Source: a virus (taxonomy: Duplodnaviria; Heunggongvirae; Uroviricota; Caudoviricetes). Taken from it: a stretch of DNA of 7,621 nucleotides. The DNA is taken from the IMG/VR virus record IMGVR_UViG_2548877009_000008, one strand, 5' to 3'. A program made the position numbers and the translations under genes. The notes below the pieces were generated by a model. It was given only the letters and a program-made list of their open reading frames with translations. It was not told the DNA's origin and made no database searches. Shown piece after piece: positions 2,087 through 3,055 of this stretch. Each line of letters begins with the position of its first letter. Within the stretch, counting starts at the first letter, position 1.

Positions 2087-3055
2087 ATGAGCAGCAAGCT
2101 TCATGGTCTTGTCTGGGAAGGGTGCGCCTTCACCGGCATGATCTTATCCAGGGTGGCGGTTATGGCCCGTCTTGCAGACTACAGCAATGACGAGGGCGTG
2201 TCATGGCCTGCCATTGAAACTATCCGGCGTCAGATCGGTGCAAGAAGTGAATCCACCGTGAAATCTGCTATTGCAGAACTGGCGAAAGAGGGCTGGCTGA
2301 CGAAGGAAGAGCGTAAGGTCGGTGGGCGTAACGTAAGCAATATCTATCGGCTTAATGTGGAAAAACTCGAAGCAGCTGCAGCTGCGGCCCGTGAGGCATA
2401 TAAACCGAAAAGAAAAATTAGCCCGGCAAAAAATGACCCGTTAACAGTTGACCCGTCAAATATTGACCCCTCAACGGTTGACCCGTCAAATTTTGATGGA
2501 TCAACTGTTGATAAAAAACTGCCGATTAGGGGGGCGATGATTGACCCCGATCCGTCAGTATTAAAACCTGATCCGTCAGATAAAAGATCTTCTTGTCCGG
2601 ACGTTTCACTGCCGGACGAAAAACAAGCATCACCGGTCGAGCGATTTCTGGAGAAACACCCGGATGCGCATACCTGGAATGTACCAAAGCGACAGTGGGG
2701 AACCCGGGAGGATTTGACGTGTGCACAGTGGATCTGGGGACGGGTTGTTGCGTTGTATGAACAGGCCGCCAGTGATGATGGGGAGGTATCACGCCCCAGA
2801 GAGCCTAACTGGACGACCTGGGCGAATGATGTGCGCATGATGCGTATGCTGGATGGACGTAGTCACCGACAGATTTGTGAAATGTTTGGGCGTGTTCAAC
2901 GGGATTCGTTCTGGGTAAAAAACATCATGAGTCCGGCAAAACTCCGGGAAAAATGGGATGAACTGGTTATCCGCCTGGGGCGTTCGCCCGCGCAGCGTTG
3001 CGTGAATCATATTTCTGAACCGGATACCGAAATTCCGCCGGGTTTCAGGGGGTAG
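2087..3055 (+). CDS. Phage replication initiator: N-terminal winged-helix/HTH replication-protein domain, repeat linker, C-terminal DnaT-like (primosomal protein I) domain
   Basis: ORF 2072..3055 in the track; ATG 2087 preferred because GGGGGT lies 4-5 nt upstream, though GTG 2072 is possible. N-terminus (SWPAIETIRRQIGARSESTVKSAIAELAKEGWL) is typical of phage O/DnaD-like initiators. C-terminus ends ISEPDTEIPPGFRG, closely matching the recalled C-terminus of E. coli DnaT. Followed by a dnaC-like gene, mirroring the chromosomal dnaT-dnaC pair. Confidence 0.85.
   Translation: MSSKLHGLVWEGCAFTGMILSRVAVMARLADYSNDEGVSWPAIETIRRQIGARSESTVKSAIAELAKEGWLTKEERKVGGRNVSNIYRLNVEKLEAAAAAAREAYKPKRKISPAKNDPLTVDPSNIDPSTVDPSNFDGSTVDKKLPIRGAMIDPDPSVLKPDPSDKRSSCPDVSLPDEKQASPVERFLEKHPDAHTWNVPKRQWGTREDLTCAQWIWGRVVALYEQAASDDGEVSRPREPNWTTWANDVRMMRMLDGRSHRQICEMFGRVQRDSFWVKNIMSPAKLREKWDELVIRLGRSPAQRCVNHISEPDTEIPPGFRG
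2433..2522. repeat. Iteron-like array: six tandem 15-bp repeats (consensus TTGACCCGTCAAnnn) inside the initiator gene; candidate origin of replication
   Basis: Units at 2433, 2448, 2463, 2478, 2493, 2508 read directly. They encode the DPSxx peptide repeats. Followed by two GATCCGTCAG repeats (2549-2558, 2570-2579) and four GATC sites between 2499 and 2589. Confidence 0.6.

Follow-up and report, generated by a model that had tools for sequence, protein, structure and literature searches.

The replication origin of phage lambda lies inside the initiator gene O (PMC5509034, PMC7466680), and the locus described here raises the question of whether an initiator built from other parts carries its origin in the same way. 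The window, by which we mean the whole 7,621-nucleotide stretch of IMG/VR virus record IMGVR_UViG_2548877009_000008 (Caudoviricetes), holds on its plus strand a gene (2087..3055 in the list of open reading frames, ORFs) for a 322-amino-acid 'helix-turn-helix' protein, the putative initiator, whose N-terminal domain belongs to the HTH_36 family. A tandem array of repeats and a cluster of GATC sites are embedded in its coding sequence. From comparison with relatives, and by analogy with lambda and phi80, we consider it probable that a lambdoid prophage has its replication origin in the segment at about 2400-2625, set inside the gene of its own initiator. The arrangement itself is an ordinary, textbook one, a lambdoid origin in the initiator gene of a very common prophage family; the variant is undescribed, and we found no paper in the literature that maps or describes an HTH_36-family origin.

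The locus offers a sequence-level definition of the origin for a large and unstudied family of initiators, comprising 1,454 protein clusters and ranging over the Shigella Sf phages, the Shiga toxin (Stx) phage P27 and phages of Klebsiella, Yersinia and Citrobacter. Such a definition should be of use in annotating origins and in predicting replication incompatibility among co-resident prophages. Furthermore, the unusual geometry of the sites (contiguous 12-bp palindromes, one per 15 bp) and the strictly conserved change of GAC in the iterons to GATC in the two boxes would make this a clean system for studying the gating of a phage origin by Dam.

The repeat array, its codons and the GATC boxes

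Six 15-bp units lie in codon phase at 2432-2521 (2432-2446, 2447-2461, 2462-2476, 2477-2491, 2492-2506 and 2507-2521), four of them good and two degenerate. The initial annotation, made from the sequence alone, had reported six such repeats inside the initiator gene and had noted that they also encode a peptide linker of the DPSxx type; both statements stand, the peptide in ORF 2087-3055 reading NDPLT-VDPSN-IDPST-VDPSN-FDGST-VDKKL. It occupies residues 116-145, between a winged helix-turn-helix (wHTH) domain (residues 1-104) and a C-terminal domain (residues 181-299). Absent from that annotation was the internal palindrome of each core: the unit is made up of a 12-bp palindrome (TTGAC-NN-GTCAA) and a 3-bp spacer, and the four good units share the core TTGA(C/T)-N4-TCAA with perfect TTGA-N4-TCAA symmetry.

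From left to right, iteron 1 (2434..2444, TGACCCGTTAA) is imperfect; iteron 2 (2448..2459, TTGACCCGTCAA) has 5-bp inverted arms about a 2-bp centre; iteron 3 (2463..2474) reads TTGACCCCTCAA; iteron 4 (2478..2489) is again TTGACCCGTCAA; iteron 5 (2493..2504, TTGATGGATCAA) holds the first GATC, at 2499-2502; and iteron 6 (2508..2519, TTGATAAAAAAC) is degenerate, keeping the left half-site only. Tandem Repeats Finder (TRF) places a period-15 array at 2413/2422-2496 (5 copies, 71-73% matches), fits a period of 30 better (2.5-3 copies, 80-84% matches) and shows no other repeat cluster in the 7.6-kb window. With both strands counted, TGANNNNTCAA occurs 8 times, always within 2448-2504, against an expectation of 1.15, and none of 200 shuffles reaches 8. 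The identity at lag 15 is 48/75, compared with 36.0 +/- 3.1 in 20,000 synonymous resamplings, none of which attains 48; the array DNA is more periodic than the peptide repeat requires.

Several further features of the array were observed. Its spacers alternate between A/T-only (ATA, ATT) and G/C-containing (CAG, CGG, CTG) triplets, a 30-bp super-period, and the encoded peptide units alternate accordingly between DPSN(I/F) and D(P/G)STV. Taken as one, 2432-2521 also forms a long imperfect palindrome with 33-nt arms that are 79% complementary. Within the E. coli lineage (IMG/VR contigs L093-L172, with identical N-domains) the array is stable, exactly one 15-bp unit being lost occasionally; some copies carry point changes that break the palindromes, such as TTGCCCCCTCAA, and one IMG/VR contig has a 21-bp deletion that removed one GATC box.

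An indication that these repeats matter as DNA comes from codon usage in 85 distinct genes, the window's included, drawn from 80 loci on one-genome-per-species Enterobacterales contigs and from seven phages (SfIV, Kp4866-6, phiNP, LLS, YeP1, phiP27 and KpF5). The N-domains of the relatives are 54-78% identical to that of the window. In all 85 genes the winged helix is followed directly by 2-11 in-phase units of 15 bp that encode a pentapeptide repeat (D-A/P/G-S-K-S and variants). When D/E-x-S units are picked by peptide pattern only, the serine codon is TCA in 328 of 379 (87%), and the codon before the Asp or Glu ends in T in 324 of 379 (85%), whether it encodes S, F, I, V, Y, P or T. As a calibrator, the invariant residues of the N-domain use all of their synonymous codons (six for S33; four for A14, at 39/31/17/13%), so that synonymous sites are saturated at this divergence. 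Asp-Pro is written GACCCN in 117/117 cases within the iterons, as against GATCCN in 157/196 in the region of the GATC boxes. Such codon patterns are those that selection on DNA sites would predict, and they are not explained by a constraint on the peptide only; the comparison shows repeats and boxes held constant as DNA across some 85 divergent relatives while the encoded peptide varies.

The repeats also vary in step with the protein. In a subfamily like that of the window, with members in E. coli, Erwinia, Mixta, Edwardsiella and Morganella, the recognition-helix segment is GA(R/K)S.(S/T)TV and the iteron consensus is (A/G)TTGA-N4-TCAA; in the SfIV-like majority they are GAGESTVRTAI and ATCTGAC-NCN-TCAAA, respectively. 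TGA is preceded by T in 89% of the former group and by C in 84% of the latter, by which the iteron flanks are shown, at the level of aligned sequences, to change with the recognition-helix subfamily. In two E. coli prophages an unrelated N-domain is joined to the same C-domain, and unrelated repeats, CCATCRGGTCAAAATG, stand at the same position in the linker. The repeat sequence would appear, from these exchanges, to be specific to the initiator N-domain and to change with it. In both of those loci (L004 and L005, each at 1735-1860, the N-domain being without a Pfam match), CCATCRGGTCAAAATG is present in 4-5 copies together with a tandem of GAGAATACAACA.

To the right of the array lie the GATC boxes. 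The initial annotation had pointed to two GATCCGTCAG repeats and four GATC sites within about 90 bp, and this is what is found: GATCCGTCAG occurs at 2549-2558 and 2570-2579, 21 bp apart, and GATC at 2499, 2549, 2570 and 2586, four sites in 91 bp of a window that has 20 GATC in all against 27 expected. A G-rich spacer (AGGGGGGCG, 2528..2536) precedes the boxes, its counterpart in relatives being GGNGGGG just before box 1. Box 1 (GATC at 2549) is fused to an iteron half-site, TTGAC, in TTGACCCCGATCCGTCAG (2541..2558) and is kept as GATCCGTCAG in 81 relatives; box 2 (2568..2581, CTGATCCGTCAGAT, GATC at 2570) matches the iteron core TGANNNNTCA and is kept as GATCC(A/G)TCAG. The segment following the array is near-invariant as DNA among relatives, GGGGATCCGTCAGTAAA-N-GATCC(A/G)TCAGATAAAAAA, the distance within the GATC pair being usually 24 bp (66 cases) and, in the lineage of the window, 21 bp, and at least two GATC fall within 90 nt after the array in 74/81 relatives. 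This supports the view that the GATC cluster is a conserved feature and no local accident. The boxes share GA(Y)SCRTCA with the iterons, TGAC being replaced by GATC. Because of this replacement, the adenine that Dam would methylate in the boxes appears to be the very one that is invariant in the iterons.

It was also observed that genes for N6-adenine DNA methyltransferases (Pfam Dam PF05869, D12 class PF02086, MT-A70) stand immediately after the initiator gene of many relatives, often with an overlap at the initiator stop codon (L008 2370-3251, L012 2436-3245 and loci L021-L087). The presence of these downstream genes would fit a strictly conserved GATC pair in the origin.

The remaining parts of an origin may be recognised on either side. 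An A-rich left flank (ATAAACCGAAAAGAAAAATTAGCCCGGCAAAAAA, 2400..2433) leads into the array, and A/T-rich troughs lie at 2400-2439, 2480-2519 and 2560-2599, with a G+C fraction of 0.35-0.375 (0.375 in the first and the last) against about 0.55 elsewhere in the gene. The segment around box 2 (2556..2596), which contains the fourth GATC (2586) and an A-run, ATAAAA(A)A, conserved in relatives, is a candidate DNA-unwinding element. An inverted repeat, TTCTTGTCCGG / CCGGACGAAAA, with arms at 2590-2600 and 2612-2622 (82% complementary in a repeat search), forms the right border of the origin-like region, and the module junctions fall just beyond 2590-2622. The element ATAAAAAA-CTTCTTGTCCGG...CCGGAC is common to genes differing in N-domain or C-domain, which fits a generic unwinding and border element, as far as comparison can indicate. 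The right arm exists in two versions, neither of which strictly follows the N-domain or the C-domain (window 2560-2622; L175 12755-12830; L068 2960-3040): AAAA-CTTCTTGTCCGG..CCGGAC is found in the window, SfIV, LLS and L004, and AAAAGATCTTCGTCCGAGAATTCTGACGAATCC in phi80 and Providencia. A consensus scan of the region found no promoter-like site. The window shows no excess of DnaA boxes (12, where 14.7 would be expected); a perfect consensus, TTTTCCACA, stands on the minus strand at 2356-2364, to the left of the iterons by 70 bp, and iteron 6 includes a box with one mismatch, TTATCAACA, on the same strand at 2506-2514.

The initiator protein and its DnaT-type tail

The 322-residue protein is laid out as an HTH_36 winged-helix N-domain, a disordered linker, a C-domain of the phi80 gp15 type and a short DnaT-type tail. 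Pfam HTH_36 (PF13730) matches residues 25-71 at 27.7 bits against a cut-off of 25, and PHROG 391, 'replication initiation O-like', covers residues 1-322 (E 5.2e-107). The PHROG families matched by the C-terminal part carry the labels O-like, DnaD-like helicase loader and replisome organizer, 'Replication protein 15' is among the source names of homologues, and matches at E up to 1e-5 extend to 1,454 database clusters.

An AlphaFold2 model, built from a 49-sequence alignment, predicts an N-terminal winged-helix DNA-binding domain (residues 1-104, 2087..2398 on the plus strand) of four helices, a beta hairpin and a further helix, with a predicted local distance difference test (pLDDT) score of 76-90. 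Residues 109-179 are unstructured (pLDDT below 50) and correspond exactly to nucleotides 2411-2623, that is, to the repeats, the boxes and the inverted repeat; in the model, the linker peptide looks like a tether, the information appearing to reside in the DNA. Residues 181-299 (2627..2983, plus strand) form a helical C-terminal domain with pLDDT of about 90, which no Pfam model covers and which is homologous to the C-domain of phi80 gp15 (BLASTP, 35% identity over 123 residues, window 184-306, E 2e-25). Residues 302-322, AQRCVNHISEPDTEIPPGFRG (2990..3052, plus strand), constitute the tail and are predicted to be disordered. A Foldseek search of the PDB with the full-length model gave generic wHTH matches of the MarR/PadR type only, all with E above 0.004, and is uninformative beyond the wHTH.

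The N-domain differs from that of phi80. Pfam Phage_rep_O (PF04492), to which phi80 gp15 scores 88 bits, does not match the window initiator at E up to 0.01, and an hhalign comparison of the N-domain profile with the O-type N-domain of phi80 gp15 was non-significant (probability 3.4%). A published HHpred link between lambda O and HTH_36 (PMC5509034) was not reproduced in our analysis. Since phi80 gp15 shares the C-domain and the N-domain differs, the initiator is, on sequence similarity, a mosaic in which an HTH_36 N-domain with its own iterons is joined to a phi80-type C-domain, so that the lambda/phi80 design is built from different parts.

The initial annotation had further proposed that the HTH domain is fused to a DnaT-like C-terminal domain, and had itself named a profile search as the deciding check. 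Such a domain fails that search, and only the terminal motif survives. The NCBIfam DnaT model (NF002770; Pfam PF17948 for the same protein) matches residues 302-322 only, at 16.8-18.2 bits against a cut-off of 201 and over model positions 159-179; the DnaT chains in the PDB (2ru8, 6aep and 9zbt) and BLASTP likewise match only the last 20-22 residues; and window residues 303-322 (QRCVNHISEPDTEIPPGFRG) are identical to E. coli DnaT 160-179 at 14/20 positions, the extreme C-terminal DnaT motif, ...VN.VSEPD..IPPGFRG, being present. When profiles of 115 C-domain and 117 DnaT sequences were compared, 16 tail residues aligned at E 0.0025; with the tail removed, E was 0.95. The domain of DnaT that is a three-helix bundle and binds single-stranded DNA (residues 84-153) was not found in the window protein, and an alignment over 79 columns that a shallow profile had suggested between the C-domain and the C-terminal domain of DnaT was dropped, as deeper profiles failed to reproduce it. 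That the initiator has two domains is supported; the stretch beyond the linker contains no DnaT-like domain. As judged by these alignments the similarity to DnaT is real but limited to a short shared C-terminal tail. Nor is the combination new: an HTH_36 protein with the DnaT C-terminal motif was described as DopC by Brezellec et al. (PMC5509034), and GenBank and other database records already name such proteins 'primosomal protein I'.

The tail is nonetheless informative. It is common to host DnaT, to Rac YdaU (a DUF1376 N-domain protein followed by the DnaC-like YdaV) and to at least four unrelated architectures of phage initiator. Phages POCJ13 and Tritos, whose unrelated initiators are of different architectures again, have it at the initiator C-terminus too, and their last 60 bp match those of the window gene at 95-97% identity as DNA. 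Megablast against phage records recovered this 60-bp tail only, and relatives needed a protein-mode search. Sites of the pattern ..VN.[IV]S.PD..IPPGFRG were recorded in the window (2990-3052), L176 (3420-3477, Rac ydaU), L177 (1501-1561), L178 (1501-1563) and the E. coli loci L004 and L005.

Among the 85 relatives, a loader of the lambda-P/phi80-gp14 type is encoded next in 6/6 cases where the tail is of the form W(E/D)xxL, and a lambda-P-type loader in 0/48 cases where it is GFR(G/S). Most phages with GFR(G/S) tails are without any loader gene, the next gene encoding an adenine methylase, a PerC-like protein or some other product, and a DnaC-like gene follows such a tail only in the E. coli lineage. 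The type of tail tracks the kind of loader used, and the simplest inference is that the tail docks loaders of the DnaC type, whether from phage or host. We put forward only tentatively, as rather less likely to be right than to be wrong, the wider proposal that the tail is a portable docking peptide for DnaC-type loaders or for DnaB-DnaC and, second and separately, that the GATC boxes are methylation-switchable copies of the iteron which gate firing. If the first part were true, tail-bearing phage initiators would need no loader of their own and would plug directly into host DnaC, and the tail would mark the contact through which DnaT hands the restart primosome to DnaB-DnaC. The recruitment of DnaB/DnaC by DnaT was called unknown in papers of 2014 and 2026 (PMC4132743, PMC13377028). 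The tracking of loader by tail may supply a concrete candidate for this contact; the preprimosome paper of 2026 is silent on the tail residues of DnaT, and we found nothing on the tail motif in the literature.

The locus as a probable origin, and the alternatives

The mechanism that we envisage takes lambda O/ori-lambda and phi80 gp15/ori as its models. The initiator would be made by transcription running rightward out of the immunity region, and dimers of its N-domain would bind the palindromic iterons side by side. Because the 15-bp packing sets successive sites about 1.4 helical turns apart, with neighbours nearly on opposite faces, the array should wrap or twist, giving a strongly deformed and compact nucleoprotein complex, and the stress might open the adjacent A/T-rich segment with its GATC boxes. 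The C-domain and tail could then bring in DnaB via a DnaC-type loader, phage-encoded or the host's. The boxes would probably make firing sensitive to Dam methylation, through SeqA or the initiator itself, since methylation of the adenine that is invariant in the iterons suggests either methylation-sensitive binding or sequestration by SeqA. The repeat-encoded peptide would be a by-product, acting as a flexible tether only.

Amongst the closest known systems is gene 15/ori-phi80, which has a two-domain initiator with a homologous C-domain, an origin in the linker, iterons that also encode a peptide repeat, and an A-rich run with AAAAGATCTTC to the right of the repeats. Four annotated gp15 binding sites lie in the equivalent linker of phi80, 21 bp apart, and encode a heptapeptide-like repeat. 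It differs in that its N-domain is Pfam Phage_rep_O rather than HTH_36, it has four iterons, each of about 15-16 bp (TTCCCGAAAACGGGAA-like), spaced by 21 bp, it is without the GATCCRTCAG box pair, and its tail ends NTDWAYGVIR with a lambda-P-type loader encoded by the next gene, 14, whereas that of the window is of the DnaC type. The GATC cluster recalls E. coli oriC and plasmid P1 oriR, which are controlled by Dam and SeqA and have clusters of GATC in or next to the unwinding region. As there, the sites (four in 91 bp in the window, with a pair conserved in the family) fall in the A/T-rich part by the initiator sites; unlike there, they number only two to four and belong to iteron-like boxes instead of 13-mer or 7-mer repeats.

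Lambda O/ori-lambda and its Stx variants have the origin in the initiator gene, as is proposed for the window, with dyad-symmetric iterons (bound by the N-domain in lambda) and, to the right, an inverted repeat and an A/T-rich region, of which the short A/T-rich segment in the window is a candidate counterpart (PMC5509034, PMC7466680); the initiator gene is similarly downstream of cro/cII-like genes, and the C-terminal part of lambda O recruits the helicase loader. There, however, about four iterons (six in Stx phages) of 19 bp stand roughly two helical turns apart, where the window has 12-bp palindromes every 15 bp and its relatives 2-11 units; the C-domain of O is Phg_2220_C (PMC5509034), and the loader is P, not DnaC. 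The 15-bp period, which the initial annotation had regarded as a departure, does differ from both lambda and phi80, yet it is the norm for a large annotated family (PHROG 391, 1,454 clusters). The same annotation's parallel with lambda O is supported by the fixation of codons in the 85 relatives, by co-variation with the N-domain and by the gp15 sites of phi80.

DopC of Cellvibrionales and Oceanospirillales shares an HTH_36 N-domain, the DnaT C-terminal motif and an ancestry in lambdoid phages (PMC5509034). DopC, though, is a domesticated chromosomal gene for which its authors found no iterons and no origin, and it pairs with the P-type DopE (PMC5509034); the window gene lies in a prophage, has kept its iterons and has a DnaC-type partner. 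In E. coli dnaT-dnaC and Rac ydaU-ydaV, too, the upstream protein ends ...VNTVS(E/L)PDS(Q/A)IPPGFRG and a DnaC-type loader gene follows within a few bases, the layout in the window (initiator stop at 3055, loader start at 3062) being the same. DnaT, in contrast, lacks both an origin and a domain for sequence-specific binding of DNA. The N-domain of YdaU is DUF1376, a check of Rac ydaU for oriJ-type repeats turned up no tandem array comparable to that of the window, and beyond the tail the similarity of either protein to that of the window is undetectable.

Three other explanations of the locus deserve consideration. The repeats might be initiator-binding sites that serve control, by autorepression of rightward transcription, handcuffing or copy control, or exclusion of related phages, with the true origin elsewhere in the prophage. 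Plasmid iterons often double as control elements, and the number of units varies from 2 to 11 among relatives, as it would in a titrating array. Cloned lambda iterons are reported to give an inhibition that is directed at lambda-type replication (PMC3349717), and direct mapping of an origin in the HTH_36 family was not found in the literature. We nevertheless think this reading unlikely: the array is always accompanied by an A/T-rich segment, the conserved GATC pair and the inverted repeat, which is a full origin anatomy; phi80 and lambda, in which the genes are laid out in this way, start replication here; and the window holds no second repeat cluster that was detected. Less probable still, and by some way, is recognition of the repeats and boxes mainly by another factor, be it host SeqA, DnaA or IHF or the nearby PerC-like or YdaT proteins. 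A GATC pair 21-24 bp apart would suit SeqA, which binds paired hemimethylated sites, and there are the perfect DnaA box at 2356-2364 and the imperfect one within iteron 6; but DnaA boxes are no more frequent than expected, the small neighbouring genes differ among relatives that keep the same repeats, the iteron flanks co-vary with the recognition-helix subfamily of the initiator, and the repeats change wholesale when the N-domain is replaced.

The least credible of the three holds that the periodicity belongs to the protein only, as a low-complexity (D-P/A-S-x-x)n flexible linker grown by slippage, with the DNA repeat as its by-product. The pentapeptide repeat is clear, the region is predicted to be disordered, and units are gained and lost in 15-bp steps, as slippage would produce. 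Against this, codons are fixed by position in relatives whose other synonymous sites are saturated, the third base stays T where the residue before Asp/Glu varies, Asp-Pro is GAC in iterons and GAT in boxes, no peptide constraint explains the palindromic DNA of the unit, and the lag-15 identity lies above all 20,000 synonymous recodings. The explanation is already strongly disfavoured.

An origin inside the initiator gene remains the reading that we prefer, and there are points that weigh against it. Neither an experiment on any HTH_36-family member nor a mapped origin was found in the searchable literature, and binding, unwinding and origin activity are all things that we infer. The 85 relatives are not independent, so their codon counts overstate the number of events. 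With only 6-9 bp between the centres of the half-sites, there is little room for a wHTH dimer of the classical kind. The A/T-rich stretch is not long and its A/T content is only moderate (G+C about 0.375 over 40 bp), and in some E. coli copies the array has lost units or acquired point changes. What speaks for a methylation role of the GATC boxes is conservation and gene neighbourhood only. Finally, the DnaC-like loader gene is destroyed in the window, whose copy may be a relic that fires only with a helper or with host DnaC.

The prophage context of the window

From the ORF list and matches to Pfam and NCBIfam, the window covers the part of an E. coli-group lambdoid prophage that is devoted to immunity and replication. 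A LexA/S24-type repressor is encoded on the minus strand at 672-1316, followed by a P22-Cro-like protein (1415-1642), a YdaT-family protein (1639-2064) and the initiator, whose start at 2087 agrees with the starts of the RefSeq coding sequences of relatives; translation could alternatively start at an in-frame GTG, at 2072. E. coli O103 RM8385 has a copy of the initiator gene with 99.3% identity, and copies covering at least 80% of the gene are present in 1,513 of 5,426 complete E. coli genomes. A 164-residue antisense ORF over the repeat region (2344-2838, minus strand) is most likely no gene, its repeats mirroring those of the sense strand.

The DnaC-like helicase-loader gene (3062..3782, plus strand) is inactivated. 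It is split into ORFs 3062-3535 and 3339-3782, each half of which matches NCBIfam PRK12377/DnaC, and alignment to an intact homologue reveals a 20-bp deletion at about 3388, between CCTGGC direct repeats, which removes the Walker A motif (GTGKNH) and shifts the frame. With this neighbouring loader broken, the prophage copy in the window is probably defective in replication unless the loader's place is taken by host DnaC or a helper. The array in the window is identical to that of many E. coli copies, and the origin itself is probably intact here. Downstream of the loader gene are genes for DUF1627, DUF977 and zinc-ribbon proteins and a toxin-antitoxin locus of the hok/sok type at 6690-7014, where Rfam sok scores 113.8 bits at 6690-6864 and a Hok-like ORF occupies 6802-7014.

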